Of a stretch of 64,000 nt of DNA, positions 7,525 through 60,637 are shown piece after piece (within the stretch, counting starts at the first letter, position 1; each line of letters opens with the position of its first letter). The translations under genes were made by a program, and so were the position numbers. The stretch covers positions 6,715-70,714 of the forward strand of contig CAYTBB010000001.1 of the NCBI GenBank assembly GCA_964435965.1. The letters run 5' to 3'. The notes under the pieces were generated by a model, which was given only the letters and a program-made list of their open reading frames with translations, did not search any database and was not told the DNA's origin. Origin of the DNA: an uncultured Dehalococcoidales bacterium. GTDB lineage: Bacteria; Chloroflexota; Dehalococcoidia; GIF9; AB-539-J10.

Positions 7525-7530
7525 ATAAAA

Positions 7531-11491: not shown

Positions 11492-13909
11492 TCAATCTCT
11501 TAAAGTAGCACCTAGTTCTTGATGTAATCTATCTACAATCCTCTGATGGGGTCTATTAACCTCTTCGTCGGTTAAAGTATGCTCAGGTGATTGATAAACA
11601 ATCCTTATAGCGAAGGATTTCTTGCCTTCAGGTATTTGCTCACCTCGATAAAAGTCAAAGAGCGTGACTTTCTTTACTAGCGGGAAGCTTCGGATTACAT
11701 CCTCCACCTGCTGATAGCTTACTTGCTTATCTATTACTAAGGCAATGTCTCTAGTTATGTTGGGAAACCGTGGGATAGGCTGATACTGCTTTACTTTGAT
11801 TGTTTTGCTCAGCAACTTCTCTATATCCATTTCAATAAGATAAACAGCATCAGAAAGCTCGAAGGCTTGTGCTACCTTGGGATGCAAGTTACCTACAATA
11901 CCCACTTTATCAGCGCCGATGATTATATTAGCTGCCCTTCCAGGTAATAGGCTTTCATCATCACTGGCCCCAAAGGTTGCTTCTAGTCCCAATTGGTTCA
12001 AAAGGTTCTCTACTACTCCCTTAGCATCAAAAAAATTGAGCTGCTCCTTATTACCGTGCCAGGACAATTCTGCCTCTGGGCCGCTAAGTGCAGCACAAAG
12101 CATTTCCTTTTCTTGTGGCAGCTCATTCCCTTGTGGCAAGAATATCTTGCCGATTTCAAATAATCTTATGCTCCCTTCCTCAACCCTTTGATTGTGTACC
12201 AAGGTAGTTAGCAAGCCAGGACGCAAAGTAGTACGCAAGTATTCCTGCTCCTTGGTCATAGGGTTAGCTACTTTCAAAGATGTAACTTTCAGCTTGAGCC
12301 TCGGAGAAATTTTTTGCAGCCTCTCTAAGCTAGTCAAAGAATAGGTCAGTATTTCTTGAAAACCGCAGCCGGTGAGAATATTTCCTAATCTTTGCTTGAG
12401 ATTGCTTCGCTGCACTCGCAATGACAACCTTGATTCCTGTTGAGGGAAGGGAGAGCTAAGCCTGGTAACAGGAACTTGGTCATAGCCGATAATGCGAACC
12501 ACCTCTTCTACAAGATCAGCAGAGCAGCTAATGTCGCTGCGCCAATAAGGAGCCACTACCAAGATTTGTGACGCTGAGTTGGCATGCTGACATTCAAAGC
12601 CCAAGGATTTTAATACTTTAAGAATCTTAGCTAATGGTACCTCTAAGCCTGAAAGTCGCTTCACCTCCTCAGCAGAGAGCAAGATGCCCTTTGGCTGTGA
12701 TTTCCCAGGATAAACATCTATTATGCTCTTAGCTGCCTTGCCGCCAGCCAGCTCCAAGAGCAATTGGGTAGCTCGCTTCAGTGGTAGCAGTGGTAAGTCA
12801 GGATTTAGCCCTTTATCGAAGCGAATAGAAGCCTCACTTTGCAAATTAAGGCAATGGCATCCTTGACGAATGATTGCTTGGTTGAAATTTGCTGACTCTA
12901 GGAGAATAGAAGTGGTTTTATCTGCAACCTCGGTATCCAATCCTCCCATAATTCCAGCAATAGCAACAGCCTTTTCTTTGTCAGCAATGACTAAAGTATC
13001 GGGGCTAAGAACACGCTCTATTCCATCAAGGGTGGTTATAGTTTCGCTATTTCTAGCCCGACGGACAATAATCTGTTTGCCTTCAAGTTCATGATAGTCA
13101 AAAGCATGGAGAGGCTGCCCATATTCCAGCATTACGTAATTGGTAACATCAACCACATTGTTAATAGGACGCATGCCATAGCTACTCAGGCGATACTGTA
13201 GCCAATTAGGAGAAGGGGCTATCTTAATCCCTATAATTAAGCTGGCACAGTACCTAGGACATAAACTTGGTTCAATTATGTCAACAGAGACAAAAGAATC
13301 TATCGGAGTCTCTGTTTCTTCATAATGAATCTCGGGCAAATGAAGTGCTTGCTCAGTAAGAGAGGCAATTTCTCTAGCAATGCCAATTATGGATAAGCAA
13401 TCTGGGCGATTGGGCGTTATATCTAAATCAAAAATAACATCGCCTAAATAGTCTCTAAGAGGCATACCTATAGGAGCTTCTGATGGTAATACCATGATGC
13501 CCCCGTGACTATCGGAGATCCCCAATTCCTTTTCAGAGCAAACCATGCCCTCAGAAAGAACGCCACGGATTTTAGCTGGCTTTAGCAAAATAGGTTTCCC
13601 AGTATGACCATCTATAAGTTGTGCTCCCACAGAGGCGAAAGGCACCTTCTGCCCGAGGCTAATGTTTGGGGCACCGCAAACCACAGTAACCTGCTGGGGG
13701 TCGAGATTAACAGTAGCTAGCCTTAGGCGATCTGCGTTGGGATGAGGATTTAAAGCCGTTACTTCTCCTACTACTACGTTGTTCCAGGTGCTGCCTGTAG
13801 TCTGTATGTCTTTGGCTTCCACGCCAGCCATAGTTAGCCTTCTAGCTAGCTCTTTAGGAGCAAGTTTGATGTCACTATAATCTTTAAGCCATTTAAGCGA
13901 AGCCTTCAT
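11492..13909 (-). CDS. pheT: phenylalanyl-tRNA synthetase beta subunit
   Basis: The protein is 805 aa and starts MKASLKWLKDYSDIKLAPKELARRLTMAGVE, with B3/4 and B5 domains and an FDX-ACB-like C-terminus. Confidence 0.93.
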   Translation of the reverse strand: MKASLKWLKDYSDIKLAPKELARRLTMAGVEAKDIQTTGSTWNNVVVGEVTALNPHPNADRLRLATVNLDPQQVTVVCGAPNISLGQKVPFASVGAQLIDGHTGKPILLKPAKIRGVLSEGMVCSEKELGISDSHGGIMVLPSEAPIGMPLRDYLGDVIFDLDITPNRPDCLSIIGIAREIASLTEQALHLPEIHYEETETPIDSFVSVDIIEPSLCPRYCASLIIGIKIAPSPNWLQYRLSSYGMRPINNVVDVTNYVMLEYGQPLHAFDYHELEGKQIIVRRARNSETITTLDGIERVLSPDTLVIADKEKAVAIAGIMGGLDTEVADKTTSILLESANFNQAIIRQGCHCLNLQSEASIRFDKGLNPDLPLLPLKRATQLLLELAGGKAAKSIIDVYPGKSQPKGILLSAEEVKRLSGLEVPLAKILKVLKSLGFECQHANSASQILVVAPYWRSDISCSADLVEEVVRIIGYDQVPVTRLSSPFPQQESRLSLRVQRSNLKQRLGNILTGCGFQEILTYSLTSLERLQKISPRLKLKVTSLKVANPMTKEQEYLRTTLRPGLLTTLVHNQRVEEGSIRLFEIGKIFLPQGNELPQEKEMLCAALSGPEAELSWHGNKEQLNFFDAKGVVENLLNQLGLEATFGASDDESLLPGRAANIIIGADKVGIVGNLHPKVAQAFELSDAVYLIEMDIEKLLSKTIKVKQYQPIPRFPNITRDIALVIDKQVSYQQVEDVIRSFPLVKKVTLFDFYRGEQIPEGKKSFAIRIVYQSPEHTLTDEEVNRPHQRIVDRLHQELGATLRD

Positions 13910-16452: not shown

Positions 16453-18174
16453 TTAGCGCTTAGCCTCTATATCTCCTCTTATCTTTGCCTTGACCTGTGA
16501 AATAGTTTGCGAGCCTATGTCCTCACCACTCCTTAAGCGAAGCGACACATTGGACGAAGCTACTTCATTATCACCAACTATAATCATGTATGGTATCTTA
16601 TTTAGTTGGGCTTCCCTTATTTTCAAGTTCATTCTCTCTGAGCGGTCGTCAACCTGAGTGCGAATCCCCTCTTCCTCAAGCTCATTTTCCACTTGGTGCG
16701 TATAATCAATATGACGATCCGCTATAGGAATTATTACAGCCTGAACTGGTGATAGCCACACAGGAAAAGCACCACCATAATGCTCAATAAGACAAGCTAA
16801 GAAGCGTTCCATGCTTCCTAACACAGTGCGATGTATCATTGTTACATTGTGTTCTAAGCCATCAGCACCAATGTAACAAACATTAAATCGTTGTGGTAAA
16901 TTGAAATCGACCTGAATGGTAGGGCCTTGCCAAGCATGTCCTAAAGCATCTCTAAGTTTAATATCAATCTTAGGTCCGTAAAAAACTCCTTCGCCAGGAT
17001 CCAGTTTGTAGGGCAATTTAAGTTTTTCTAAGACCCGTTTTAAAGATTCTGTAGCTCCCTCCCACATTTCAATAGTCCCAGCATATTTATCTGGACGTGT
17101 GGATAATAGCAATTCATAATCACCAAAGCCGAAAGTGGACATCATAAACTTTGCTAGTTCTACAACTCCCATTACTTCCGCTTCAGTTTGCTCAGGTCGG
17201 CAGAAAATGTGAGCATCGTCTTGAGTGAATCCCCTTACTCTAGCTAAGCCATGTAGCACCCCGGTGCGCTCATACCTATATACCGTGCCTAATTCGGCAT
17301 ACCTCAGAGGTAAATCGCGATAGCTACGCAGTTGACTTTTATAAATCATGATATGCCCCAAGCAATTCATCGGCTTTATTATGTATTGTTGTCCTTCTAC
17401 TTCCATTGGTGAATATAAGTAATCCCGATAAAATTCCCAGTGCCCGCTGGTTTTCCACAAATCTAACTTGGCAATATGAGGAGTATAGACAATATCGTAG
17501 CCTTGCTTAATATGTTCCGCCTTCCAAAAATCCTCAATAATCCGCCGAATTAAAGCACCTTTAGGGTGCCAACAAATTAAACCAGGGCCAATTTCCTCGT
17601 GAATACTGAAAAGATCGAGCTCTTTGCCTAGCTTCCTATGGTCTCGTTTGGCAGCTTCAGCCTGGCACAATAAATAATCCTCAAGCTCTGCTTGGCTATC
17701 AAAAGCTACACCATAAATTCTCTGCAACATGGGTTGTCTCTCATCGCCACGCCAATATGCTCCGGCGATATGAGTAAGCTTAAACGCTTTCACCTCCCCT
17801 GTAGAAGCTATATGGGGGCCACGGCATAAATCGGTAAAAGAACCTTGCTTATAGATAGCCACTATAGCATCGGGGAGTTCATTAATAAGCTCCAGTTTAT
17901 AAGGTTGGGTGGCAAAAAGGAGACGTGCTTTCTCCTTGCTTACTTCCTCTCTGATGAAAGGCAAATCAGCAGCAATAATCTCCTTCATTTTGCTGTCAAT
18001 TATCGGCATGTCTTCTTGTGTTAACGGACGTGGTAGCTCAAAATCATAATAAAAGCCACTCTCAATAGCTGGCCCAATGCCAAATTTGGCCTCAGGGAAA
18101 AGGGATTGCACTGCCTCAGCCATGATGTGAGCAGCAGAGTGACGCATCCTTTCCAATCTCTCTTCTCTGTTCAT
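16453..18174 (-). CDS. thrS: threonyl-tRNA synthetase (lacks the N-terminal TGS domain; begins in the editing/second-additional domain)
   Basis: The protein is 573 aa. HSAAHIM is the editing-domain His motif, class II motifs are present, and the C-terminus is an anticodon-binding domain. Confidence 0.93.
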   Translation of the reverse strand: MNREERLERMRHSAAHIMAEAVQSLFPEAKFGIGPAIESGFYYDFELPRPLTQEDMPIIDSKMKEIIAADLPFIREEVSKEKARLLFATQPYKLELINELPDAIVAIYKQGSFTDLCRGPHIASTGEVKAFKLTHIAGAYWRGDERQPMLQRIYGVAFDSQAELEDYLLCQAEAAKRDHRKLGKELDLFSIHEEIGPGLICWHPKGALIRRIIEDFWKAEHIKQGYDIVYTPHIAKLDLWKTSGHWEFYRDYLYSPMEVEGQQYIIKPMNCLGHIMIYKSQLRSYRDLPLRYAELGTVYRYERTGVLHGLARVRGFTQDDAHIFCRPEQTEAEVMGVVELAKFMMSTFGFGDYELLLSTRPDKYAGTIEMWEGATESLKRVLEKLKLPYKLDPGEGVFYGPKIDIKLRDALGHAWQGPTIQVDFNLPQRFNVCYIGADGLEHNVTMIHRTVLGSMERFLACLIEHYGGAFPVWLSPVQAVIIPIADRHIDYTHQVENELEEEGIRTQVDDRSERMNLKIREAQLNKIPYMIIVGDNEVASSNVSLRLRSGEDIGSQTISQVKAKIRGDIEAKR

Positions 18175-18414: not shown

Positions 18415-18487
18415 TGGGCGATACTGGATTTGAACCAGTGACCTCTGCGATGTCAACGCAGCGCTCTAACCGCTGAGCTAACCGCCC
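18415..18487 (-). tRNA. tRNA-Val (anticodon GAC)
   Basis: The reverse complement is GGGCGGTTAGCTCAGCGGTTAGAGCGCTGCGTTGACATCGCAGAGGTCACTGGTTCAAATCCAGTATCGCCCA, a complete cloverleaf with anticodon loop TTGACAT and no encoded CCA. Confidence 0.85.
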
Positions 18488-18552: not shown

Positions 18553-18728
18553 GTCATTCCACAACACCTACCTGTAGGCTCTGAACCCCTCACTCCTTTT
18601 CACTTCGTTCAGAGCTTCGGCTCACCAAGGTAAACTCCGCGAGGAATCTCGTAGCATTCAGACAGGCTCCGTGAAAAATCTTTACCCCTCGCTGCCTCTT
18701 TGCTTCGAGTGTTTCAGTTCAGAATGAT
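18553..18728. repeat. family-1 dispersed repeat, long form (copy D)
   Basis: This copy shares CCTACCTGTAGGCTCTGAACC...CCTCACTCCTTTTCACTTCGTTCAGAG...CGCGAGGAATCTCGTAGCATTCAGACAGGCTCCGTGAAAAATCT with copy A (34190-34340) and with the flanks of copy C. Its ends are the TIR-like GTCATTCC and CAGAATGATA. Confidence 0.6.
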
Positions 18729-18806: not shown

Positions 18807-19229
18807 ATGATTGAGAAGGCTTTTGAAATCATTGATCACACTGCTGACGTAGGCATTATTGCTTATGGAGCTGATATTAAGCAGCTCTTTTCCAATGCTG
18901 CTTTAGCCTTGTTTAGCTTGATCACGGAGGTCGGAAGCATTAATGAGAAATTGCAGCGCCACGTAGAGATAATTAGTGAAGACAAAGATAGCTTACTAGT
19001 AGAATGGCTTAATGAGCTTATTTACCTCTTTGATGCTGAGCACGTTTTGTTTAGGAGGTTCGACATCGAAAGTTTGACTAACAACCAGCTTAGAGCTACT
19101 TGCTATGGGGAGGATCTTGATCCTCTAAAACATAAGATAAGGACGGGAGTAAAAGCAGCTACATACCATATGTTAAAAATAAACAAGGATGACCACGGTT
19201 ATGAGGTGCAAATAATCTTTGATGTTTAA
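18807..19229 (+). CDS. archease (RtcB activator)
   Basis: The 140-aa protein starts MIEKAFEIIDHTADVGIIAYGADIKQLF and lies directly upstream of rtcB. Confidence 0.85.
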   Translation: MIEKAFEIIDHTADVGIIAYGADIKQLFSNAALALFSLITEVGSINEKLQRHVEIISEDKDSLLVEWLNELIYLFDAEHVLFRRFDIESLTNNQLRATCYGEDLDPLKHKIRTGVKAATYHMLKINKDDHGYEVQIIFDV

Positions 19230-20698: not shown

Positions 20699-20706
20699 AG
20701 CAATAT

Positions 20707-20735
20707 GTCATTGCGAGTGAAGCGAAGCAATCCCC
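20707..20735. repeat. family-1 repeat head GTCATTGCGAGTGAAGCGAAGCAATCCCC (copy F) forming the 5' extension of the next ORF
   Basis: The motif GTCATTGCGAG...GCGAAGCAATC matches the copies at 25311, 41043 and 50834. Confidence 0.5.
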
Positions 20736-24783: not shown

Positions 24784-26091
24784 TTAACTCTTGAGCCCAG
24801 TTACAACCTCCTCTGGACTAGTAATTCTGCCTAGAATAGCGCTAGCGGCAGCTACTACAGGACTTGCCAAATAGACCTCGGACTGAGGGCTTCCCATTCT
24901 GCCAACAAAATTTCGGTTGGTGGTAGATAAACAGCGCTCACCAGCGGCTAAAACCCCCATGTGTCCACCAAGACAAGGCCCACAAGTAGGAGTGCTTACT
25001 ACAGCCCCAGCTTCTATAAAAGTTTCTATTAGCCCCTCTCTCAAAGCATCAAGATAAACCTTCTGCGAGCCTGGAATAATGATACATCTAATTTCTGGAT
25101 GTATTTGCCTTCCTTTGAGGAGTTTAGCCGCTACTCTCAAATCACCAAGGCGACCATTGGTGCAACCGCCGATAACCACCTGATCTAGTTTTATGTTACC
25201 CACCTGGCTTACAGGTTTAGTATTGGAGGGAAGATGAGGGAAAGCCACCTGAGGCTCAATTTTGGACACCTCATATTCTCTGATTTTGGCATATTCAGCA
25301 TCTTTACATTGAGATTGCTTCGTCGCTGACGCTCCTCGCAATGACGTAGGGGATGGCTCGCAATGACGGAGGGACACGTGCGCTTTAATATATTCCTCGG
25401 CCTTAGCATCTACACAAAAAATGCCAGCCTTAGCTCCAGCTTCGATGGCCATATTTGCCATAGTAAAGCGCCCATCCATTGATAGCTCATCAACTGCTTC
25501 ACCCCTAAACTCCATAACCGAGTAAAGCGCTCCATCTACACCAATATCTCCGATGGTGTAAAGAATAATATCCTTGCCACTAACCCATTTGGGCAGCTTC
25601 CCATGGTAAATAAACTTAATCGTTTGTGGCACCTTCATCCATATTTCGCCGGTAGCCATAGCCACAGCAATGTCAGTTGAACCCATGCCTGTGGCAAAAG
25701 CTCCCAGGGCACCATAAGTACAAGTATGGGAATCAGCGCCAACAATGACTTGCCCAGACAAGACCAAGCCTTGCTCAGGCAAGAGCACATGCTCAATCCC
25801 CATTCGCCCTACCTCAAAGTAAATCAGTCCCTGTTCCTTAGCGAACTCACGCATCAGCTTTGCTTGTCCAGCAGATGCTATATCTTTATTGGGGCAAAAA
25901 TGATCGGGAACCATGACTACCTTTGCAGGGTCAAACACCTTTGATATTCCAAGCCGTTGAAACTCTTTTATGGCTAAGGGGGCAGTTATATCATTGGCTA
26001 AAACTAAATCAACTCTGACATTTATAAACTCGCCAGGCTTAACTTCCTTCTTGCCACTATGAGCTGCTAAGATCTTCTCAGCTAAAGTCAA
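24784..26091 (-). CDS. leuC: 3-isopropylmalate dehydratase large subunit (archaeal type) carrying an in-frame repeat-derived insertion
   Basis: The 435-aa protein has an aconitase-family catalytic domain with Cys ligands (GGCTNG, TCGPCLG). The segment [25 protein letters not shown] is translated from repeat copy G. Confidence 0.9.
25311..25368. repeat. family-1 repeat (copy G): two tandem GTCATTGCGAG heads plus a GCGACGAAGCAATCTC tail, inside leuC
   Basis: The plus strand reads GAGATTGCTTCGTCGCTGACGCTCCTCGCAATGACGTAGGGGATGGCTCGCAATGACGG, which matches copy H almost base for base. Confidence 0.6.
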
Positions 26092-34189: not shown

Positions 34190-34340
34190 TTACTTGTAGG
34201 CCCTGAGCCTTTCGCTTCCTGTCATTCTGAATTCTTCACTCCTTGTCATTCTGAGGGAGGGAAGCGACCGAAGAATCTCATTGCGCTCAGGACAGGCTCA
34301 GCGAAAAATCTAGAGCCCCTTCACTTCATTCAGGGTGACA
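34190..34340. repeat. family-1 dispersed repeat, long form (copy A) with two TGTCATTCTGA heads and a CAGGGTGACA terminal inverted repeat
   Basis: The copy reads ...CTTGTAGGCCCTGAGCC...TGTCATTCTGAATTCTTCACTCCTTGTCATTCTGAGGGAGGGAAGCGACCGAAGAATCTCATTGCGCTCAGGACAGGCTCAGCGAAAAATCTAGAGCCCCTTCACTTCATTCAGGGTGACA. It is homologous to copies B, C, D and E. Confidence 0.65.
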
Positions 34341-34419
34341 ACGAATACCAGCATTCATCGCCTTGACGCTAGTATAACACAGTGATAATCTAGCATAACA
34401 TTATCAGTGTAACTCTGAA

Positions 34420-36090
34420 ATGGAAAACGAACTGCAAAGCCACCGGGTCTCCGCTAGCGATGACATTGAAGTCTCTACTTACTTGAAGATCGCTAAAGAG
34501 TTGCGTGGTGAGCAACCAACATTTGAGTTTAAGGCGCTGCCGCCGGGCGAAAAAGAAACCATAGTAGTGATTGATTTTGGCTCTCAATACAGTATGCTCA
34601 TTGTCAGGCGAGTGCGAGAATGCCATGTCTACTGCGAGCTTGTGCCCTATGATACCCCCTGGAAGAAAATAGCTATCCTTAACCCAAAAGGTTTTATCCT
34701 TTCCGGGGGCCCTGGTAGTGTCTATGTTCCTGGGGCTCCTCTAGCTCCGACCTATATTTACGAGAGCCATCTTCCAGTAATGGGCATTTGCTATGGCACG
34801 CAGGCTATTGCCTATCAACTAGGTGGCCAAGTATCTCCAGGTGAAAAGCATGAATATGGTCATACTATCCTACATGTAAGTGCTGAGGACTGCCCTCTTT
34901 TTGCTGGCCTCCCTACATCCCTCCCTGTGTGGATGAGCCATGGTGACCAAATATTAGAGACGCCTCCCGGCTTTAAGGCCGTGGCTTATACCGAAAATTC
35001 CCCTATCGCTGTTATGGGCAATGATGAGGGTATTTTTGGGCTCCAGTTTCATCCTGAAGTGGCTCATACTCCACAAGGAAAAAACATATTCCAGAACTTT
35101 CTATATCGTGTATGCGGCTGTCAAGGCAATTGGACCGCTACTAGATTCATAGCTGAGAGCATAGACAAGATTAAGGAACAAGTGGGCGCTGGTAGGGCTA
35201 TCTGCGCCCTTTCCGGTGGTGTTGATTCGGCAGTAACCGCTACTCTTATTCACCGCGCTATTGGTGATAATCTGACTTGTTTATTTATCAATACTGGGCT
35301 GCTACGTCGTGAGGAGCCAGAGAGAGTGCTTAATACTTTCCAGCGCAATCTCAAAATGGATATAGTTCATGTAGATGCCAGCGAAAGATTTCTGGAGCGA
35401 CTTCGCGAGGTAATTGATCCAGAGATGAAGCGACACCTGATAGGGGAGGTATTCATCCGGGTTTTTGAGGAAGAAGCAGCTAAACTGGGCAGGTTTGATT
35501 TTTTGGCTCAAGGGACTCTTTACCCCGACGTGATCGAAAGCAGCACTGCTATTGAAACTAAGGCCTCAACCAAAATAAAAAGTCATCACAACGTTGGTGG
35601 CTTGCCAGCTAAAATGAAGTTTAACCTTATTGAGCCATTGAGGTATCTGTTTAAGGATGAAGTTCGGGAGATAGGGCTAGCTTTGGGTCTACCTGAAGAC
35701 ATGGTTTGGCGGCAACCATTCCCGGGACCGGGACTAGCTATCCGCATCATTGGCGAAGTGACCAAAGAACGGTTGGAGATACTTCGTGCCGCTGATTGGA
35801 TTGTGATGAACGAGATCAAAAAGGCTAAACTTTATCGTCAGCTATGGCAGAGTTTTGCTGTGCTTACTGGTGTCAAAAGCGTGGGCGTGATGGGCGATCA
35901 TAGAACCTACGGCTATCTAATAGCAGTTAGGGCAATAAATAGTGAGGATGCCATGACTGCTGATTGGGCGAGGTTGCCTTATGACCTCCTGGCTAGAATA
36001 TCAGACCGCATAGTTAATGAAGTCCCCGATGTCAATAGAGTAGTTTATGATGTTACCAGCAAGCCGCCGGCAACCATAGAATGGGAGTAA
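34420..36090 (+). CDS. guaA: GMP synthase (glutamine-hydrolysing); the N-terminal ~45 residues are non-standard, so the true start is possibly downstream
   Basis: The protein is 556 aa with a GATase domain ([10 protein letters not shown]...CYGTQ...) and an ATP-PPase domain (SGGVDSAV). Confidence 0.9.
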
Positions 36091-36093
36091 CTG

Positions 36094-36168
36094 TTCACTT
36101 TAGTGTCATTCTGAGAGAGCGTGGCGACCGAAGAATCTTAGAGACACTTCGCTTCGCTCAGGGTGACA
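36094..36168. repeat. family-1 repeat, short form (copy B)
   Basis: The copy reads TTCACTTTAGTGTCATTCTGAGAGAGCGTGGCGACCGAAGAATCTTAGAGACACTTCGCTTCGCTCAGGGTGACA. Its TIRs are TGTCATTCTGAG and CTCAGGGTGACA. Confidence 0.65.
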
Positions 36169-36212
36169 CAGAGTGGCTGAACGCTTACGAGTGGGAATAA
36201 AATAAGATTAAA

Positions 36213-36697: not shown

Positions 36698-37495
36698 ATG
36701 GAAGACATAGATAAACTTAATGAGCTTTTACACTTCATGAAAGGTGCTGAACCATTCTCTGTGACTTTTACTGAATTGACTAAGTCTAGCGAGCAATGGT
36801 GTCCTTTTCAGCATGGTGATGGTTTCAACTTAGACTGCTACAAAACCCATTCTCAGGTTCAGGCTATAATTAACTGGACTGAGAAGTACTTGATTTGCTG
36901 TAAATACTTAGATATTAATAAGTATAGCCTTGATTCCATGACTGATACTCTTGAAAAATTAAGAATACCCGAAGAAATTCGTGAGCATGCTGATTTTCAG
37001 CTGTTTATCGATGACCTGAAGCTACTAATTAAGTTTGTAGAGCCAGACATCTGTGACAAACTTTCCCGTCTTGAATGTACAGAGTGTGAAAGGTTAGATG
37101 AAGCGCTAGTATGTTTTCAGAATTATTGTTTCTATTCTGCCGTTGTCATGTCAGTTTCGGCTGTGGAATATCGTATCGCTGAAATGATTAGAAGGTCGGA
37201 TTCTGAGCTTTACTTGAAACACTTTCAAAAGGTAACTTTGGGACAACTTATAAAGGTTTTTCAAGACGATGAGTATAAAGATGAGGAATTTAAAAAAATA
37301 AGGAAATTAATGCCCATTAAGCATAAACCACTGGTTTCATTACTAAATAATTACCGTGTATTCGCAGCACATCCGACAGAGCAAAAAATCACTCCCCAAA
37401 TTGCAGAAGCTATTATTCACCTTGCGTTCTCTTTTCTAACAGATGCCCAAACCTGTCCGTACAGTCCGGAGGAGAGGATTTGCCGTAAGGCGTAG
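36698..37495 (+). CDS. hypothetical Cys-rich helical protein with C-terminal Rx4H (HEPN-like) motif; low-GC
   Basis: The 265-aa protein has AT-rich codon usage (~38 % GC versus ~47 % in neighbours). It contains YRVFAAHPTE near the C-terminus and multiple Cys pairs (CPFQHGDGFNLDC, ICCKY, CDKLSRLECTEC, CFQNYC). Confidence 0.55.
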   Translation: MEDIDKLNELLHFMKGAEPFSVTFTELTKSSEQWCPFQHGDGFNLDCYKTHSQVQAIINWTEKYLICCKYLDINKYSLDSMTDTLEKLRIPEEIREHADFQLFIDDLKLLIKFVEPDICDKLSRLECTECERLDEALVCFQNYCFYSAVVMSVSAVEYRIAEMIRRSDSELYLKHFQKVTLGQLIKVFQDDEYKDEEFKKIRKLMPIKHKPLVSLLNNYRVFAAHPTEQKITPQIAEAIIHLAFSFLTDAQTCPYSPEERICRKA

Positions 37496-37594
37496 TCATT
37501 AGTAAATAGCTAATTTTGAACCTGTTTTAGGATTTAAACTTAAATGTTTTGATATAAGTTCGAAGGTAGCCTGAAGGGGCAAAGCTCCTTCAAA

Positions 37595-37632
37595 CCCGAT
37601 CCCTCCCCCTCTCCTTTGAAGGAAAGGGGGAC
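37595..37632 (+). promoter_or_regulatory. strong hairpin CCCCCTCTCCTT-tg-AAGGAAAGGGGG upstream of purD (family-2-like)
   Basis: The stem is 12 bp with one mismatch. It lies ~100 nt after the preceding stop and ~45 nt before the purD start. No U-tract follows it. Confidence 0.3.
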
Positions 37633-40758: not shown

Positions 40759-41727
40759 TTGGGAATGTCTGTTTTATTACAAACTGACTTACCTCTTCCC
40801 TTATTCCGTCGCGGCAAGGTAAGAGATGTCTATGACTTAGATGACAAACTTCTTATAGTGGCTACTGACCGCATCTCTGCTTTTGATTTTGTCCTGCCTT
40901 GTGGCGTCCCCAACAAAGGGAAGGTTCTTAATCAACTCTCAGCCTTTTGGTTTGAGAAAACAGCCCATATTGTGCCCAATCATCTCATCAAGGTAATTGA
41001 TAGCTTGGATGCGTTTGAGGATGTCATCGCGAGGGCTGAAAGCCCGAAGCAATCTCAAGAGAAGAAAGATTCCTCGCTTACGCTCGGAACAAGCCTTATT
41101 GGCCGCTCCATGCTTGTGGCTAAAGCTGAGCGTATTCCTGTAGAATGTGTTGTTCGAGGTTACTTATCTGGCTCAGCTTGGGCAGAGTATAAGAAAAGTG
41201 GTACTGCTGGCGATATTCGCTTACCAGCCGGGATGAAGGAAAGTCAAGAATTGTCTCACCCTATCTTTACTCCTACTACCAAAGGAGAGGCAGAGCATGA
41301 CCGTCCTTTAACTAATCAAGATATAAGGAACCTTGAGGAAATATCATTGCAGGCGGGGCGAAGCAAGCTCAATTTGATTAAGGAATTGGAGGAGAAAAGC
41401 TTGCTCATTTACCGCTACGCACGAGATTATGCTAAAAACAAGGGCATCATGATTGCCGACACCAAGTTTGAGTTCGGCTTTGTCAATGGTGAACTAACGC
41501 TTATTGACGAGCTATTAACGCCGGACTCGAGTCGCTTTTGGGATGCTAGCCAATACGAAGTTGGTCATTCACAACCCAGCTTTGACAAACAACCAGTTCG
41601 TGATTGGCTTTCAGCCTCAGGATGGAACAAAGAGCCACCGGCGCCTATGTTGCCATTGGAGGTAATTGAGGCTACCACACAACGGTATAACAGAATCTAT
41701 CAGTTGTTTACTGGAAAACGTGTCTAG
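40759..41727 (+). CDS. purC: SAICAR synthetase (long, eukaryote-like form) carrying an in-frame repeat-derived insertion
   Basis: The 322-aa protein contains GKVRDVYD...VATDRISAFD...ADTKFEFG...LTPDSSRFW. The segment DVIARAESPKQSQEKK is encoded by a family-1 repeat. Confidence 0.9.
   Translation: MGMSVLLQTDLPLPLFRRGKVRDVYDLDDKLLIVATDRISAFDFVLPCGVPNKGKVLNQLSAFWFEKTAHIVPNHLIKVIDSLDAFEDVIARAESPKQSQEKKDSSLTLGTSLIGRSMLVAKAERIPVECVVRGYLSGSAWAEYKKSGTAGDIRLPAGMKESQELSHPIFTPTTKGEAEHDRPLTNQDIRNLEEISLQAGRSKLNLIKELEEKSLLIYRYARDYAKNKGIMIADTKFEFGFVNGELTLIDELLTPDSSRFWDASQYEVGHSQPSFDKQPVRDWLSASGWNKEPPAPMLPLEVIEATTQRYNRIYQLFTGKRV
41043..41076. repeat. family-1 repeat copy inside purC (GTCATCGCGAGGGCTGAAAGCCCGAAGCAATCTC)
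   Basis: The head GTCAT(T/C)GCGAGG and tail CGAAGCAATCTC match copies G and H. Confidence 0.55.
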
Positions 41728-47455: not shown

Positions 47456-48649
47456 TTAAACTCCTTTTGATTTTATTTCCTTTAATGCCCCAATTAAGGC
47501 ATCGGTGTCCTCAGGTTTACCCACGCTTATTCGCAGGTAATTTCTTAATCGTGGGCTATCAAAATAGCGGATAAAGATGCCTCTTTTTTGCAGCAAACGC
47601 CAAATCTCTTTAGCCGGAGATTCTTCGCCGAGCTTGCCCTGAGTGAGATTCCTCGGTCGCTGTCCCTTCGCTTTGCCCAGGGCTTCGGCTAACCCCACGG
47701 AATGACAGTGTAAGGAGCAGAGGATAAAATTAGCACTGGAAGGATAGGGTTTTAGCCATTCTAGCTCTTTTAATTTGCCAAATAATCGCTCCCGCTCAGC
47801 AACTATTTTTGCTACATTGCCACGAAGATACTCTATATCTGACAAAGAAGCTAAGGCGGCTGCCTGTGCTGCGACATTAACATTATATGGTTGCTTAATC
47901 TTCATAAGGTAGCTGGCGATTTCAGTAGGGAAGATGCCATAGCCTATTCGTAAACCGGCTAGCCCAGCCCATTTGCTGAATGTACGCAGCACTATCAAGT
48001 TGGAGTAGTTGGGCACTAAATTAGCCACAGTGACGTTGCTAAACTCAAAGTAAGCTTCATCCACCATCACAATTTTCCCGGTGTTGACAAGTTCCATTAT
48101 CTCCTGCCCAGTAATAATGTTGCCCGCAGGATTATTAGGTGAAGCAACAGAGATGACCTTGGTCTTTTTATCCAATACGCTCTTAATGCCAGCTAAATCG
48201 ATAGCAAAATCTCCATCTCTAGGTACATCAACTACCTTGCCACCGCATACCTCAGTACTAAAGGGATACATACCAAATGTTGGTGGACAATTGACAACCT
48301 TGTCACCAGGTTTAAGGAAAAGCCTCAGAACAAGATCAATTATTTCATCACTGCCGCTGCCGCAAACAATGTGCTCACGATTTAAGCCGGTATATTTCTC
48401 TAAGGCTTGTCTAAGCCTTCTTTGTTCCGGGTCGGGGTAGATATAATAGTAAGGGTAGTTAGCTAAAGCTTGATAGACTCTGGGGGAGCACCCGTAAGGG
48501 TTCTCATTGCCATCGAGTTTAATTATCCTTTCTACAGATAATTCAGCCCGCTGGCTCAAAATATCCATTGGCTCAATAGGGGTATAGCTTTTCATAGTTA
48601 TCAATTCAGGCCTGATTAGTTCTTTCATAGCCATCTCAACTAAAACCAA
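47456..48649 (-). CDS. hisC: histidinol-phosphate aminotransferase
   Basis: The protein is 397 aa, class II aminotransferase, with SFSKWAGLAGLRIGY. Confidence 0.9.
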   Translation of the reverse strand: MVLVEMAMKELIRPELITMKSYTPIEPMDILSQRAELSVERIIKLDGNENPYGCSPRVYQALANYPYYYIYPDPEQRRLRQALEKYTGLNREHIVCGSGSDEIIDLVLRLFLKPGDKVVNCPPTFGMYPFSTEVCGGKVVDVPRDGDFAIDLAGIKSVLDKKTKVISVASPNNPAGNIITGQEIMELVNTGKIVMVDEAYFEFSNVTVANLVPNYSNLIVLRTFSKWAGLAGLRIGYGIFPTEIASYLMKIKQPYNVNVAAQAAALASLSDIEYLRGNVAKIVAERERLFGKLKELEWLKPYPSSANFILCSLHCHSVGLAEALGKAKGQRPRNLTQGKLGEESPAKEIWRLLQKRGIFIRYFDSPRLRNYLRISVGKPEDTDALIGALKEIKSKGV

Positions 48650-50060: not shown

Positions 50061-50070
50061 GATAATCTTT

Positions 50071-50107
50071 TCACCCTCACCTTAATCCTCCCCCGTCAAG
50101 GGAGAGG
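50071..50107. repeat. family-2 palindromic repeat TCACCCTCACCTTAATCCTCCCCCGTCAAGGGAGAGG
   Basis: This is a near-identical copy of 5084-5120. It lies in the hisG-hisD intergenic spacer and is followed (50114-50127) by a family-1 head fragment GGCTCGCAATGACA. Confidence 0.5.
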
Positions 50108-50141
50108 AGAATTGGCTCGCAATGACAAAAGGGAGAGTTAA

Positions 50142-51569
50142 TCATGAGAGCCCTCTGCGTAATGTTTGAATAAGAAATTCAATCTTCTCCTTTTTACCAG
50201 GGAAGTCAAGGCTGCCTTTGTTTCCGATTAGACAAGCAGTGGATTTGAAAAGCACATCGATAACTTTTAAGTCATGTTGCGCCAGTGTTTTCCCAGTTTG
50301 GGTATTGTCAATGAGCAAATCGGCATCCTCGGGCAGGAAAACTTCACTCGCTCCCCAAGTTGGGATTACCTTGCACGGGTTGATATAGTTATCTCGAAGA
50401 TACTTATCAGCGATGTTTACGTATTCTGAAGCTACTCTTAATAGAGTAAGTTTACCACTTTGAATAAGCGATCTTAAGTCAGCAACGTCGGTTATAGGCA
50501 TATCTTGACTCACTGCAGCCACAATTTTAACCATACCAAAGCCCAGATCAAGCAACTCCTTCACTGGGCTTGAGGGGAAACGATAGAGGTGTTCCAGCAA
50601 CCAATCCTTACCGGTTATGGCTAAATCAAAATTGCCATTAGCCACTTGAAGAGGCATATCCTGAGGTCTGATTACCTTAATGCCAAGCCAATCTAAATCG
50701 GAGGAGGGGCGACGGTTCAATACTTCCTCTGTATACCCCTGAATGTTAAGCCCACTTCGCTTCAAAAACTGCGCCGTAGGTGGTTGCTGATGTCCATCAG
50801 GCAAAGCTAGCTTTATTTCCTTCGCTTGCCAATGAGATTGCTTCGTCGCTTCACTCCTCGCAATGACCGTACTAGGGCTTGTAACAACATTATTTCGGCT
50901 TGCAATAACATTGCTGAAACAATTCAATATCTGGCTCAGATCTTTATTCTCCAAGCTTTCTCGGTTAGCGATTAGAAAGGCTGTGACCGGGAGTAACTTT
51001 ATTAGGGGAACCAAACTTTGCTCCTTTATCTCATTTTCATTCCTTGCCCACAGTATTGCCAGATCAGCACTATCTGGGGGATAAATTTCAGCAGCTCCCC
51101 ACACCGGGAAAATCTTAAAGGCCTTCATCCTGAGATTTAAGGCAAAAACTTGAGCTAAATTAGGGTACTCGCTTACTATGCGCCAGTTATCCCGCTTGGC
51201 TAACAATCCGTCAAGATTGGATATCCCTGCTTGGTAGCTGGCCACCGCATATACACCACCCTCACCGTAATTTAGACTTGATATTTTTACTAAGGCGCTC
51301 GCTGGATACCTCGCCAAAAGTTCCTCAACCCAATCCAAGCCACATATTCCCAGGTCATAATTGCCTATGGCTACTTGCATGGGAATATCTTTCTCCTGAA
51401 ATACCTTGGCCGAAAGCCAAGAGAACCTTCTCGATTGAAGGCGATATCGCCTCGTCTTATTGCTGTAGCCTTTAATGCCCACCCCTGCCCCTTTAAGCAA
51501 GTTAGCCGTAGTCAGTAAGAACCTACCTTTAGGCAAGGCGAGTTTGATATGGCACGGTTGGTATTCCAC
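50142..51569 (-). CDS. hisG: tandem double-domain ATP phosphoribosyltransferase (two short-form HisG domains fused through a repeat-derived linker)
   Basis: The N-half reads IKLALPKGRFL...KDIPMQVAIGNYDLGICGLDW...DSADLAILWAR. The C-half reads IKLALPDGHQQ...QDMPLQVANGNFDLAITGKDW...DADLLIDNTQTGKTLAQHDLKV. The PRPP-loop TGxT motif is kept only in the C-half. Confidence 0.85.
   Translation of the reverse strand: MEYQPCHIKLALPKGRFLLTTANLLKGAGVGIKGYSNKTRRYRLQSRRFSWLSAKVFQEKDIPMQVAIGNYDLGICGLDWVEELLARYPASALVKISSLNYGEGGVYAVASYQAGISNLDGLLAKRDNWRIVSEYPNLAQVFALNLRMKAFKIFPVWGAAEIYPPDSADLAILWARNENEIKEQSLVPLIKLLPVTAFLIANRESLENKDLSQILNCFSNVIASRNNVVTSPSTVIARSEATKQSHWQAKEIKLALPDGHQQPPTAQFLKRSGLNIQGYTEEVLNRRPSSDLDWLGIKVIRPQDMPLQVANGNFDLAITGKDWLLEHLYRFPSSPVKELLDLGFGMVKIVAAVSQDMPITDVADLRSLIQSGKLTLLRVASEYVNIADKYLRDNYINPCKVIPTWGASEVFLPEDADLLIDNTQTGKTLAQHDLKVIDVLFKSTACLIGNKGSLDFPGKKEKIEFLIQTLRRGLS
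50834..50868. repeat. family-1 repeat (copy H) forming the inter-domain linker of hisG
   Basis: The plus strand reads GAGATTGCTTCGTCGCTTCACTCCTCGCAATGACC. On the coding (minus) strand it is followed by two degenerate head-like units, aatgttattgcaagc and aataatgttgttacaagc. Confidence 0.6.
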
Positions 51570-52896: not shown

Positions 52897-52948
52897 CCTA
52901 CCTGTCATTCTGAGCGTAGCGAAGAATCTCATACCGCTCAGGGTGACA
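52897..52948. repeat. family-1 repeat, minimal short form (copy C)
   Basis: The copy reads CCTACCTGTCATTCTGAGCGTAGCGAAGAATCTCATACCGCTCAGGGTGACA. Its TIRs TGTCATTCTGAGCG and CGCTCAGGGTGACA are perfect apart from the central TT/GG. Confidence 0.65.
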
Positions 52949-53018: not shown

Positions 53019-54332
53019 ATGAATAGAACTTTGCTCAGGATTTTCCTTCTTGCCTTGTTTATAATCACAATAGTTGGGGCTTTGGGAGGCAGCATAATTA
53101 GCGCTTCCAGTCCAACGATTGAAATCCTTCATGTGGAAGGCACTATTGTGCCAGTGGTGGCTGATTACATTGATCGAGGTATTAGCCAGGCTGAAGATGA
53201 GAATGCTACTGTTTGCATTATTGAATTAAATACGCCAGGAGGGCTTCTCACCGCAACGGAGAAAATAGTCCAGAGAATTATGAATGCCGATGTGCCTGTA
53301 GTAGTTTACGTTTCCCCTAAAGGTGCCTGGGCTGCTTCAGCGGGAACTTTCATTACTTTATCTGCTCATATAGCCGCTATGACATCGGGCACCACTATTG
53401 GTGCTGCCCATCCTGTAGCTGCCGGGGGAGAGGAAATACCGGAAGCCCAAATGGAGAAGATAGTCGAATTTTCGGCTAAATGGATGAGGACCATTGCCGA
53501 GGAGCGGGGTCGCAATATGGAAGAAGCTGAGCTAGCCGTGACAGAAAGTAAATCCTTTACTGATGTTGATGCCCTGGAATCTAACCTTATTGATATGAGA
53601 GCTGATAATTTAGAAAGCCTTATTTCCCAAATCAATGGCTGGAGAGTTACTTTAGCCAATGGCGAGGAAGTTACTATTAACACTACGGGCTACGAGACAA
53701 TTAGAAATGAAATGAATGCCATTGAGCAGTTCTTGCAAGCCATAAGTGACCCAAATATTGCCTACATCCTGCTTACTCTGGCTACCATAGGGCTAATCAC
53801 TGAGATTTCCAACCCAGGGATGGTTATTCCCGGGGTAGCCGGTGGCATAAGCTTATTCCTGGCGTTTTACTCCTTGGGAGTACTTAATGCTTACTGGGGG
53901 GGTATAGCGCTTATTCTGCTTGCCGTTGGACTTTTCGTCGCCGAGTATTTCACCGCTAGCTTTGGTCTATTTACCGCTGGAGGTATAATCTCGCTGGTTG
54001 TTGGCTCCCTAATCTTATTCAGCTATAGTCCAGGAATAGAAGTAAATCGTGGGCTAATTGCCGGCGTCACAGCTGCCATTGCCGCCTTTGGTATCTTTGT
54101 CATTGGTGCTATCATTAGAGGACAGAGACGCCGCAAAGCTACTGGCCCTGAGGGAATGGTGGGGAGGCTAGCTATAGCCAAAACGCCTCTAGACCCCACA
54201 GGCACAGTTCTAGCTGAAGGCGAACTTTGGACAGCCATAGCTGAAGGGGGTAAAATAGAACCACATGAGAAGGTGGTCATAACCAAAGTAGAAGAACTGA
54301 AATTGTGGGTGGCAAAAAAATCTAAAGAATAG
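53019..54332 (+). CDS. NfeD-family membrane-bound serine protease (ClpP-like domain, TM region, C-terminal OB-fold domain)
   Basis: The protein is 437 aa with a signal/TM segment, the ClpP-class block GGLLTATEKIVQRI...SAGTFITLSAHIAAM, 4-5 TM helices and a C-terminal NfeD beta-domain. Confidence 0.85.
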   Translation: MNRTLLRIFLLALFIITIVGALGGSIISASSPTIEILHVEGTIVPVVADYIDRGISQAEDENATVCIIELNTPGGLLTATEKIVQRIMNADVPVVVYVSPKGAWAASAGTFITLSAHIAAMTSGTTIGAAHPVAAGGEEIPEAQMEKIVEFSAKWMRTIAEERGRNMEEAELAVTESKSFTDVDALESNLIDMRADNLESLISQINGWRVTLANGEEVTINTTGYETIRNEMNAIEQFLQAISDPNIAYILLTLATIGLITEISNPGMVIPGVAGGISLFLAFYSLGVLNAYWGGIALILLAVGLFVAEYFTASFGLFTAGGIISLVVGSLILFSYSPGIEVNRGLIAGVTAAIAAFGIFVIGAIIRGQRRRKATGPEGMVGRLAIAKTPLDPTGTVLAEGELWTAIAEGGKIEPHEKVVITKVEELKLWVAKKSKE

Positions 54333-54341
54333 GAGGGTAGT

Positions 54342-54752
54342 TTGCTATTCATGGAATCGCCCTTTGTCGAATCATTACCTGAAGAGTTAGAAGCACTATT
54401 TAAGGCGTTATCTAAAGCGTTATTTAAAGTATCAGAAGCACTATCTATGGGAATAACAGGGCCTATTATTGTAGTCATAATTTTTGCCGCCGCCTTTGTT
54501 ATCTTCGTCATTTTTGCTATCGTTAAAGGTCAAAGGCGGAAACTCACCGCTGGTGTAGAGAATATGGTGGGAAAAGTGGCTGTAACGCAAACAGAGCTCA
54601 ATCCTACAGGCACAGTTCTGGCTGAAGGCGAGCTTTGGACAGCCATAGCTGAGGGGAGTAAAATAAAACCTGATGAGGAGGTGGTCATAACTAAAGTAGC
54701 AGGCTTGAAATTGTGGGTAACAAAAAAATCTAAAGAAAAGGAGGACAAATAA
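54342..54752 (+). CDS. short NfeD-like protein (TM + OB-fold), recent partial duplicate of the preceding gene's C-terminus
   Basis: The C-terminal ~55 residues (PTGTVLAEGELWTAIAEGSKIKPDEEVVITKVAGLKLWVTKKSKE) are nearly identical to the C-terminus of 53019..54332. The nucleotide sequences of the two regions are ~90 % identical. Confidence 0.7.
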   Translation: MLFMESPFVESLPEELEALFKALSKALFKVSEALSMGITGPIIVVIIFAAAFVIFVIFAIVKGQRRKLTAGVENMVGKVAVTQTELNPTGTVLAEGELWTAIAEGSKIKPDEEVVITKVAGLKLWVTKKSKEKEDK

Positions 54753-57340: not shown

Positions 57341-58480
57341 TCAACTATATTTGCTTAGAATAGCTTTGAAGGAATCTCTGACAAAAGCTAGCTGTTCTTT
57401 ATCAGCGGCAAAGGTAGAGAGTTTAAAAGCTTTTGTCAGACCCGGCTGCAGCCCCCAAATGCCTCTGCCCTTCAGCTCCTTGTACAGGAAATATCCCCTC
57501 TCTCGGACATTCTTGGAGATGTCATAGAGCATCGGAGCTTCAAAGTGCAGTAAGTCATGTCTATGCGGTTTCTCTCCTAGCTGCTTAAAACCCAATTTCT
57601 CAAGTTCAGTGGAAAGCCATTGCGCCTTTAATACTTGCTCAGCCCAATGGTTAACCCTTTCTTTCACATAAGGGAAGGAAGCCATAAGCGTTACCAGCGG
57701 GACGCCCCTCAAGGTACAGCCAAGAAGCTCAACCTCTTTATTGCTATATGCCTCAGATTTCCTCAATACTATTTCTTCCCACTTCTTTTTCATTCCCAAA
57801 ACTCCACAAGGCCCGGCAGAAGCCATGCTTTTGTGTCCACTACCAACAATGAAGTCAGCTCCAACATCGTTCATTTTGATCGGCATTCTGCCCACCGCAT
57901 ATGCACCATTAAGGATATAAGGGATACCATATTCTTGAGCAATTTTCCCTAGCTTTGTGGCATCGGAAAGATTTCCATAATTGCCATCGGGGTAAGTTAA
58001 TAAAATTAGTTTAGGATTATTCTTTTTTATAACTGGTATGTAATCGTTAACATCAATCCTGAATTCTGGATAACCGGAGTGAGGCACTTCGATAACATTC
58101 AACCCTACCCTTTCAGCGGCAACAATTGTAGTGTAATGCCTGCTACTATCGACAATGATTGAATCACCTGGCTTGGCCAAAGAATGCATTACCATGTATT
58201 TAGCTTCTCTTGCCCCATGAGTTATGGTAGCAACATCGCAACCCAAAAATTGGGGTAAAAGTTCCCGCACAAACTCTCGGACAGGAGGATTTGTTATCTC
58301 GCACAAGCTGCCAAGGCAAAAATCACACACGGAATACCCATCTCCAAATTCCACTAATGCTTCCCTAGCAGCATCAGTGAGAATGCCTCCCGTTTGAAGA
58401 GGCATAAGATTTATAAGGCCTTTGTGCAATCTTTGTAATGCACCAAGTTTCTGTAATGCTTTATTTGTTGGCTGCTTCAT
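57341..58480 (-). CDS. Sep-tRNA:Cys-tRNA synthase (SepCysS), PLP-dependent
   Basis: The protein is 379 aa with a PLP-lysine region (IVGSGHKSMASAGPCGVLG) and a size typical of SepCysS. It overlaps SepRS by 4 nt. Confidence 0.75.
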   Translation of the reverse strand: MKQPTNKALQKLGALQRLHKGLINLMPLQTGGILTDAAREALVEFGDGYSVCDFCLGSLCEITNPPVREFVRELLPQFLGCDVATITHGAREAKYMVMHSLAKPGDSIIVDSSRHYTTIVAAERVGLNVIEVPHSGYPEFRIDVNDYIPVIKKNNPKLILLTYPDGNYGNLSDATKLGKIAQEYGIPYILNGAYAVGRMPIKMNDVGADFIVGSGHKSMASAGPCGVLGMKKKWEEIVLRKSEAYSNKEVELLGCTLRGVPLVTLMASFPYVKERVNHWAEQVLKAQWLSTELEKLGFKQLGEKPHRHDLLHFEAPMLYDISKNVRERGYFLYKELKGRGIWGLQPGLTKAFKLSTFAADKEQLAFVRDSFKAILSKYS

Positions 58481-60594: not shown

Positions 60595-60637
60595 ACGTCT
60601 CCAATTATTCTCGCCTAGTAATCCCACCTGCCATCTT

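Follow-up and report, generated by a model that had tools for sequence, protein, structure and literature searches.

The spacer between the divergently oriented Sua5/TsaC-like gene and guaA of an uncultured Dehalococcoidales bacterium holds a cluster of short hairpin repeats (34190–34341, +). It lies in the 64-kb stretch analysed here, called the window below (assembly GCA_964435965.1, contig CAYTBB010000001.1, positions 6,715 to 70,714). The cluster starts with a leader module (34190–34219) and a head-only, tailless copy (34220–34231), followed by a full ATTCT-type unit (34243–34280, +), a module GCTCAGGACAGGCTCAGCGAAAAATCT (34285–34311) and a reverse ACCCT-type unit (34312–34341, −), and its inverted termini are formed by the outermost heads. 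With our covariance model, R1, it scored 45 bits (E 5e-11) and 23.5 bits (E 1.4e-4). A census of complete units with R1, filters off, found 10 at 8 loci of the window: 12397–12427 (−), 20705–20735 (+), 25310–25347 (−), 34243–34280 (+), 34312–34341 (−), 36103–36140 (+), 36140–36169 (−), 41021–41057 (+), 50833–50869 (−) and 52902–52931 (+). The seed of R1 held eight of these units, the reverse partners at 36140 and 34312 standing outside it, and direct reading of the sequence added about eight partial or degenerate copies. The repeats are not assembly artefacts, since another assembly of this organism matches at 99.98% identity, and nhmmer detected 69 significant units in 932 kb of related Dehalococcoidia DNA. 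We regard the elements as probably repetitive palindromic (REP) sequences of the superfamily tagged with CGTC or TGTC, with the anatomy described below.

The copies resemble one another far beyond chance. The first-pass annotation, made from this DNA alone, had listed nine places, and all nine hold related sequence. With at most two mismatches, the tail motif CGCTCAGGGTGACA has five matches in the window against 0.16 expected from shuffles, and the pattern CCTTCACT-N(2-6)-TTCAGGGT, which ties 34318 to 60642, has two against an expectation of 0. Shared modules had been claimed for the two long forms, 18553–18728 and 34190–34340, and these gave a 52-nt local alignment with a score of 45, where shuffles averaged 15.9 and reached 27 at most. 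On the other hand, the supposed single family has a related core but is divided, by repeat finding and motif scans, into sub-families differing complementarily in their stems: ATTGC/GCAAT, ATTCT/AGAAT and ACCCT/AGGGT. The ATTGC type reads GTCATTGCGAG...CGAAGCAATCTC and the ATTCT type GTCATTCTGAG...CGAAGAATCTC; the ACCCT type stands mainly in reverse orientation in the window. A tail that is the inverted complement of the head, proposed for all copies, is present at 34190–34341, 36103–36169 and 52902–52948, where a second, reverse unit or head supplies it, but not in the ATTGC-type copies, which are single units. The copy placed at 41043–41076 is real, though this segment spans only the 3′ half of the unit 41021–41057 and the start of a reverse remnant, and the list missed copies in pheT (12397–12427), in hisC (47617–47707) and at a second site in purC (41342–41372). 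A head-like 14-mer within dxr (4749–4762) was judged to be a chance match.

The anatomy was derived from an alignment of 55 distinct units from the window and 82 related Dehalococcoidia loci. A unit is an imperfect hairpin of about 30–40 nt that carries no gene and consists of the tag (C/T)GTC, an outer stem of 5 bp, a tandem G·A step (GA facing GA, or GAA in the ATTGC type), an apical hairpin and a 3-nt tail, CTC(A). The stem starts with AT in the ATTGC and ATTCT types and with AC in the ACCCT type. The apical stem has 2–8 bp, mostly closing a GNA triloop, and its helices are variable in the long forms. The short form has GCGNAGC at this place and, when the G·A step is included, has a 9-position stem with a 3-nt GNA loop (ATTCTGAGC-GTA-GCGAAGAAT), its Watson-Crick part being 5+2 bp. 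The mini-hairpin d(GCGNAGC) is unusually stable as DNA, and tandem G·A steps are also stabilising. Units are found singly, as tag-outward dimers that make long hairpins, and in nested or tandem clusters. The minimal form, of 46 nt, lies in the divergent hisZ/nfeD spacer (52902–52948, +; R1 45 bits, E 5e-11) and joins a short ATTCT-type unit with a GCGTAGC mini-hairpin (52902–52931) to a reverse head (52935–52948). It folds as a 14-bp hairpin with two G·T pairs (−10.2 kcal/mol as DNA, z −3.6), and 0 of 200 shuffles were as stable.

Covariation in the stems is strong, including in tests without selection for pairing. When heads and tails were tabulated over the 932 kb of Dehalococcoidia DNA with no pairing required, ATTGC was followed by GCAAT 33 times, ATTCT by AGAAT 23 times and ACCCT by AGGGT five times, with 0 mixed combinations; 28 of 61 ATTGC heads had no tail, head-only modules being common. 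A degenerate scan of viral contigs, in which 16 stem combinations were allowed, gave complementary stems in 168 of 174 matches and added the stems ATCCT/AGGAT and ACTCT/AGAGT. In our alignment A1, nine of ten pairs had changed on both sides, the observed score was reached by 0 of 500 shuffles, and slid controls were far lower; the outer helix of A1 had been partly selected for pairing while units were collected, and the apical helix had not. Apical helices of at least 4 bp were present in 51 of 133 distinct inner segments, about threefold more than the roughly 16 expected from shuffles, and those of at least 6 bp in 15 (0.8 expected). The middle base of the loop is free (CGNAG with A 60, C 26, T 15 and G 12 at N).

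Calling this density of repeats unusual for a housekeeping region, as had been done, is an understatement, and what had gone unnoticed is that copies sit inside the housekeeping genes themselves. ORF (open reading frame) translation and Pfam placed units in frame in five genes, pheT, leuC, purC (two sites), hisC and a double hisG, only in loops or linkers, stop-free and read as extra peptide. In pheT (ORF 11492–13909) an ATTGC-type short unit, TGTCATTGCGAGTGCAGCGAAGCAATCTCA (12397–12427, −; R1 46.6 bits, E 1.6e-11), lies in sense and encodes LSLRVQRSNLK in the linker between the B5 (410–476) and catalytic-like tRNA_synthFbeta (496–696) domains, a region that varies in comparison with PheT chains of the Protein Data Bank (PDB). 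In leuC (ORF 24784–26091) the stretch 25310–25369 (−) comprises a head-only module, CGTCATTGCGAGCCATCCCCTAC (25349–25369), and then a full ATTGC-type unit with a longer apical hairpin (25310–25347; 50.9 bits, E 8e-13). Both are in frame and sense, in a length-variable stretch that has 8 extra residues relative to 4nqy. At purC site 1 (41021–41090, +; ORF 40759–41727) an ATTGC-type unit with the apical stem GGGCT/AGCCC and a GAA loop (41021–41057; 44.6 bits, E 6e-11) is joined by a reverse remnant (41064–41090). The site is in frame and sense, encodes VIARAESPKQSQEKKDSSLTLG and makes a net 11-residue insertion relative to yeast SAICAR synthase 1a48. Site 2 (41342–41372, +) is a degenerate unit below the R1 threshold, TATCATTGCAGGCGGGGCGAAGCAAGCTCAA, which encodes ISLQAGRSKLNL; its net in-frame insertion of 27 nt gives nine extra residues relative to 1a48, and both purC sites fall in length-variable stretches. 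The hisC copy, identified by sequence and motif matches, is a degenerate composite of 91 nt (47617–47707, −; ORF 47456–48649, Pfam Aminotran_1_2) that lies in frame and sense near the C-terminus and consists of a head TGTCATTCCGTG.., ..CGAGGAATCTC and then CTCAGGGCAAGCTCGGCGAAGAATCTC. The double-HisG ORF (50142–51569, −; 475 aa), which adjoins hisZ and is matched twice by Pfam HisG, has a linker with an ATTGC-type unit (50833–50869; 50.5 bits, E 1e-12) and an older degenerate unit read directly from the sequence (50886–50909), together 50833–50909 (−) and encoding VIASRNN..VIARSEATKQSH. This fusion is kept in relatives down to about 45–65% identity, with a hypervariable, stop-free linker that is here made of REP units. 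An AlphaFold2 model of LeuC with its insert, built with 41 close homologues in the alignment, had a mean pLDDT (predicted local distance difference test) of 42 and was unusable; because of this, the surface-loop placement of the inserts is based on the PDB sequence alignments, by which they lie in variable loops or linkers of their host proteins.

Such copies, in frame, stop-free, always sense and recurring at the same protein positions, could suggest a conserved peptide module, in which selection acts on the encoded peptide and the similarity of the DNA is secondary. We give this explanation almost no weight, and the frame and intergenic data already largely refute it. Across genes, the same DNA is translated in each of the three sense frames, some half of all copies lie between genes, in both orientations, and conservation tracks base-pairing, not codons. 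Moreover, close homologues work without the insert, as in the 417-aa LeuC and in PurC with empty sites.

The same sites differ markedly among relatives. Among 120 LeuC homologues of 78–95% identity, the leuC site is either empty (417–419 aa) or filled by one to about five units of differing types and frames, and in one relative, L004 (~92% nucleotide identity), the units are of the ATTCT type. In 78 related purC genes, all of which stay open through it, site 1 gives a similar picture: no unit, units of ATTGC type or derived from ATTCT, or 21-nt head modules in tandem; another relative, L245 (92% nucleotide identity), has one extra 21-nt head module there. Site 2 carries its insertion in the window, L245 and L246, whereas L247, L259 and L273 lack it. 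The hisC site of L245 has a different composite, 42 nt shorter, with a canonical ATTCT unit and a head. L245 has kept the cluster at 34190–34341, and L004 has an extra internal 29 nt in it with another canonical unit. A unit between hisC and hisB is a further difference between the window and L004/L245. Occupied sites therefore keep changing, by tandem gain of head modules or by a swap of unit type. Judged from the homologues compared, the sites at leuC and purC are hot spots, and at such sites more distant relatives carry no units. These differences at several orthologous sites, against relatives of only about 92% nucleotide identity, support the earlier suggestion of recent activity.

The clearest insertion lies directly after the guaA stop codon (36091–36200, +; 110 nt), where a tag-outward dimer stands in short unique flanks. 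It is made of an ATTCT-type unit (36103–36140, +; R1 E 3e-8) and an ACCCT-type unit (36140–36169, −; E 3e-6), and folds as DNA with −13.8 kcal/mol (z −3.2). The insertion is missing from L245 and most of about 30 other relatives compared. L259 has it with the same flanks and a 46-nt core, and the 67-nt core of the window copy recurs with 89.6% identity at an unrelated locus in L270. A clean insertion of this kind might be taken for a MITE (miniature inverted-repeat transposable element), as the first-pass annotation had half suggested, that is, for a deleted derivative of a DDE-type insertion sequence moved by its transposase in cut-and-paste or copy-and-paste fashion. Known bacterial MITEs (Correia, Nezha; PMC10969869) are likewise small, non-autonomous, dispersed and sometimes intragenic, and have inverted termini comparable with those of the dimers here. 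Dimers with the inverted termini TGTCATTCTGAGCG...CGCTCAGGGTGACA fold strongly (z −3.2 to −3.6), the guaA-3′ insertion, which most relatives lack, has a 12-bp direct repeat, and an insertion between leuD and leuB in L004 is flanked by AAGGTG on both sides. Nevertheless, we consider a classical MITE unlikely. Known MITEs have an identifiable parent insertion sequence and fixed target duplications, neither of which was found here: direct repeats at the polymorphic sites are inconsistent (12 bp, 6 bp, 4–5 bp or none), and a search for a common target motif showed no conservation of the flanks beyond 1 nt upstream and 3 nt downstream. Most copies are single hairpins with no inverted partner or terminal inverted repeats, and head-only modules are frequent. 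The flanks within the 12-bp repeat are unique, and the 67-nt core recurs elsewhere without them. Pfam detected no transposase among about 60 ORFs of the window, and no transposase was recurrent in 120 genome loci. A cross-phylum 30-nt core with covarying stems is also unlike MITEs derived from insertion sequences. The other half of the earlier description, a REP-like, dispersed, modular and non-autonomous element, holds well for hairpins of about 30 nt with a conserved tag and tail that form dimers and clusters.

Strong covariation is also what a structured RNA would show, for example a 3′-end stabiliser, terminator, attenuator or small RNA that serves the host and is kept for its function rather than as selfish DNA. 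The dimers contain G·T pairs, which would be G·U in RNA, and many REPs are reported to be transcribed in the survey by Di Nocera, De Gregorio & Rocco (2013; BMC Genomics 14:522, PMC3733652). In addition, intragenic matches are 30 sense to 0 antisense at roughly 8 independent sites, a bias (p ~0.02) that is suggestive only. Even so, a host-serving RNA seems to us improbable as a general explanation. Between co-directional genes 11 intergenic units are sense and as many are antisense, with seven more between divergent genes; copies lie within the coding regions of unrelated enzymes, and their presence and unit type vary among close relatives at orthologous sites. Rfam gave no family match to the elements even at E up to 10, the best being chance-level eukaryotic miRNA and snoRNA models, and on the window only a 5S rRNA and two tRNAs passed the gathering score. 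Some individual copies may have been co-opted for host functions.

The core is not confined to Dehalococcoidia, and each phylum-level group in the genome sample contained it. An exact scan for the ATTGC-type core was made in species-representative genomes and viral contigs, and its counts are among the matches listed. On this basis the core occurs in Alpha-, Gamma- and Deltaproteobacteria, Chloroflexota, Bacteroidota, Patescibacteria, Cyanobacteria, Planctomycetota, Firmicutes and Campylobacterota, as well as in Zixibacteria, Sporomusa, Helicobacter and many Bradyrhizobium, and also in viral contigs. Of 353 units among the matches listed, 96% had C or T before GTC (C 188, T 150) and 15 had A or G. 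In the window, the seven units of a strict scan have TGTC (five), CGTC (one) and GGTC (one), and those at 34312, 36140 and 41021 also have TGTC. The tail is conserved over 2–3 nt only, as CAG after ..AATC (CCAG) among the matches listed from the genome sample; Dehalococcoidia and viral contigs have TC(A) at this place (CTCA). Among the matches listed, neighbouring units in 240 loci were tag-outward in 52 cases, tag-inward in three and tandem in 11, with a modal spacer of 22–27 nt, and both window dimers, 36103–36169 and 34243–34341, have their tags outside. As a separate observation, viral contig L051 (2695–2818) departs from the usual dimers in carrying four ATTGC-type units in strict tandem, one every 33 nt (25-nt units separated by 8-nt spacers). 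Many contigs with ATTGC units among the viral loci L005–L124 share head, portal and tail-like genes, in clusters of 15–19 loci. The ATTGC-type repeat may be common in one prophage or gene-transfer-agent-like group, and a link of that group to Alphaproteobacteria is only a guess.

The features above are best compared with the CGTC-tagged REP superfamily. According to the survey (PMC3733652), these REPs have a CGTC tag with TGTC or CCTC variants, a stem of 8–9 bp whose first two pairs are A-T, a loop of 4–5 nt and an unpaired 3-bp tail near CCA; other loop lengths are noted for CGTC-1 of Bradyrhizobium. HH dimers (tags outside) prevail, tags-inside and tandem arrangements are rare, intragenic units are in frame, and a dedicated transposase is not known. 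The class takes in RPE-4/6 of Rickettsia and dRS3 of Neisseria (filed as CGTC-1), and was reported from five phyla, Chloroflexi not being among them (PMC3733652). Our elements share the tag, the 3-nt tail, the HH dimers and the in-frame copies. They are similar in stem and loop, with an A-T start in two of the three stem types and a small loop, and no associated transposase is known for either, although a single-copy gene may lie elsewhere in the genome, outside these 64 kb. Bradyrhizobium and other Alphaproteobacteria, in which the published family is strongly represented, are also rich in the core among the matches listed. Clusters are rare in CGTC REPs. Here they are frequent, as are head-only modules, and some half of all copies lie within genes. 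Chloroflexota is a new phylum for CGTC-tagged REPs and has a variant stem design, while the kind of element is itself already known. Neither ATTGCGAG, ATTCTGAG nor the encoded peptides occur in the text and supplements of PMC3733652, and literature text containing sequence words such as GTCATTGCGAG and CTGAGCGAAGCGAAG gave only unrelated primer and plasmid matches.

Other known repeats are similar in part. The GTAG REPs and their dimers (REPINs), which are mobilised by RAYT (REP-associated tyrosine transposase; TnpA-REP), are also short imperfect palindromes with an unpaired tetranucleotide tag; they make dimers, are non-autonomous and presumably work as single-stranded hairpins. They differ in the tag, GTAG instead of (C/T)GTC, and in their hallmark, a single-copy RAYT gene flanked by repeats, of which none was seen in the 64 kb. 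The layout of dRS3 in Neisseria is CGTC-ATTCCCGC-loop-GCGGGAAT-CCAG, and dRS3 is the integration target of a filamentous prophage via an IS110-type recombinase. Our units have the same tag, AT-start stem and tail register as dRS3 and are clustered like the dRS3-containing neisserial intergenic mosaic elements (NIMEs), but the dRS3 stem is perfect and its sequence different. The Rickettsia palindromic elements (RPE; Ogata et al. 2000) are also palindromic, in frame in housekeeping genes, translated and tolerated at variable surface positions. In contrast, their hosts are obligate intracellular Alphaproteobacteria and not free-living Dehalococcoidia, and RPE-1 has about 100–150 nt; this comparison is one of features, not of sequence.

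Several points weigh against the assignment of these elements to a CGTC-type REP that moves as a single strand. The stems of CGTC REPs are perfect over 8–9 bp with loops of 4–5 nt, whereas the stem here is interrupted by the G·A step and has a variable apex, and the likeness to the class is one of described features rather than of alignment to the CGTC-1 to CGTC-4 consensus sequences. Standard nearest-neighbour DNA parameters give single units no unusual stability (z −1.1 to +1.7 relative to shuffles), while the dimer and the minimal form stand out, with the z values given above. Heads and tails may match perfectly in part because the units descend from a few master copies, instead of being selected for pairing. 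At the guaA-3′ site a clean insertion stands between direct repeats of 12 bp, GAATGGGAGTAA (36079–36090) and GAGTGGGAATAA (36189–36200), which REP/RAYT-type single-strand transposition would not yield. Finally, no mobilising enzyme was found, either by Pfam in the window or among the neighbours in the genome sample.

For the movement of the units we propose, tentatively and at less than even odds, a single-strand mechanism driven in trans. The hairpin would form in single-stranded DNA, possibly in RNA, and a host or mobile enzyme acting in trans would recognise it and copy the unit. Tandem head modules would arise from slippage, recombination between copies would add turnover, and swaps of unit type at one site might come from insertion into, or recombination with, resident copies. 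Selection would then remove those intragenic copies that break the frame or the fold. With regard to the enzyme, the ORFs of the window include no Y1 transposase according to Pfam, and no protein family recurs beside the copies in the 120 genome loci; recurrent neighbours in the viral sample are ordinary structural genes of phages or gene-transfer agents. None of the later papers found to cite PMC3733652 names a mobilising enzyme. A link of small GIY-YIG nuclease genes to such repeats was also considered, and dropped after a search by regular expression only, in which 0 of 7,522 ORFs at 240 repeat-bearing loci had a GIY-YIG-like N-terminus. It is a rather speculative idea that the core is the recognition site of one widespread enzyme of single-stranded DNA, be it a replication or repair factor of the host or a cryptic mobile nuclease, which copies units across phyla and into phage and prophage DNA and prefers occupied sites. 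If true, one shared enzyme would explain both the CGTC class without transposase and the recurrent intragenic hot spots, and Dehalococcoidia, with their typically small genomes and many polymorphic sites, would be a good place to find it.

Hairpin repeats like the REPs rank with the commonest non-coding repeats of bacteria, and, to our knowledge, nobody has explained how the CGTC/TGTC class moves or how one hairpin of about 30 nt came to be shared across phyla. This lineage offers a clean polymorphic data set, in which a given site may be empty or hold one unit or several in relatives 70–95% identical. About half of the copies lie in frame in essential enzymes, as in Rickettsia, so that insertion of palindromes into protein loops is not peculiar to intracellular parasites. 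Annotation and phylogenomics of uncultured Chloroflexota should also take the repeats into account, since REP segments lengthen core proteins, give rise to small ORFs that are spurious and can lead alignments and marker-gene trees astray.

The remaining copies in the window are intergenic or nearly so. The degenerate composite cluster at 18553–18728 (+) lies between a tRNA gene (18415–18487, −) and an archease gene (18807–19229, +); it shares the module CGARGAATCTC..TCAGGACAGGCTC.G.GAAAAATCT with 34268–34320 and is matched only weakly by R1 (18596–18614, E 0.47). The ATTGC-type short unit at 20705–20735 (+; 42.6 bits, E 2.6e-10), in the spacer between rtcB and a nitroreductase gene, is kept in L004 and overlaps the first possible start codon of the nitroreductase, whose true start is probably a downstream ATG that leaves the unit in the 5′ leader. 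A head-only copy, TGTCATTGCGAGCCA (50106–50128, −), downstream of the double-hisG gene, matches the head exactly and scores 8.6 bits with R1 (E 4). A degenerate reverse ACCCT-type unit at the 5′ edge of a cinA-like ORF (60638–60665, −; ORF 60079–60648) is below R1 detection. The window also has a second small palindromic repeat, unrelated to the REPs, at 5081–5120 (+), 50068–50107 (+), 7500–7525 (−) and, weakly, 37589–37628. It reads TCACCCTCACCTTAxTCCTCxCCC..TCAAGGGAGAGG with the hairpin CCTCTCCC/GGGAGAGG. Its copy at 50068–50107 abuts the head-only REP at 50106–50128, and L245 (~18107–18170) has a 62-nt insert with a hairpin of the same kind at the site of window position 48758, with flanks ATCCTT(T/C).

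Some neighbouring features also deserve mention. A 265-aa ORF without a Pfam match (36698–37495, +) lies within 1.1 kb of sequence in whose place L245 has about 260 nt. Between ilvC and leuA, L004 (7355–8250) has two small genes more than the window, one with no Pfam family on record and the other matching PaREP1. A SepSecS/SepCysS-like aminotransferase gene (57341–58480, −) adjoins the gene of a 507-aa class-II tRNA-synt_2d protein (58477–60000, −), and this pair (57341–60000) resembles the indirect route to Cys-tRNA through SepRS and SepCysS, which is known chiefly from methanogenic archaea. A lone 5S rRNA gene (61499–61615, −) stands between MBL-fold hydrolase and DUF72 genes with no 23S rRNA gene adjacent to it. 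Finally, a direct repeat of 82% identity and 408-nt spacing (54081–54336 and 54489–54744) reflects the C-terminal NfeD domain that the long nfeD gene has in common with the short nfeD paralogue beside it.

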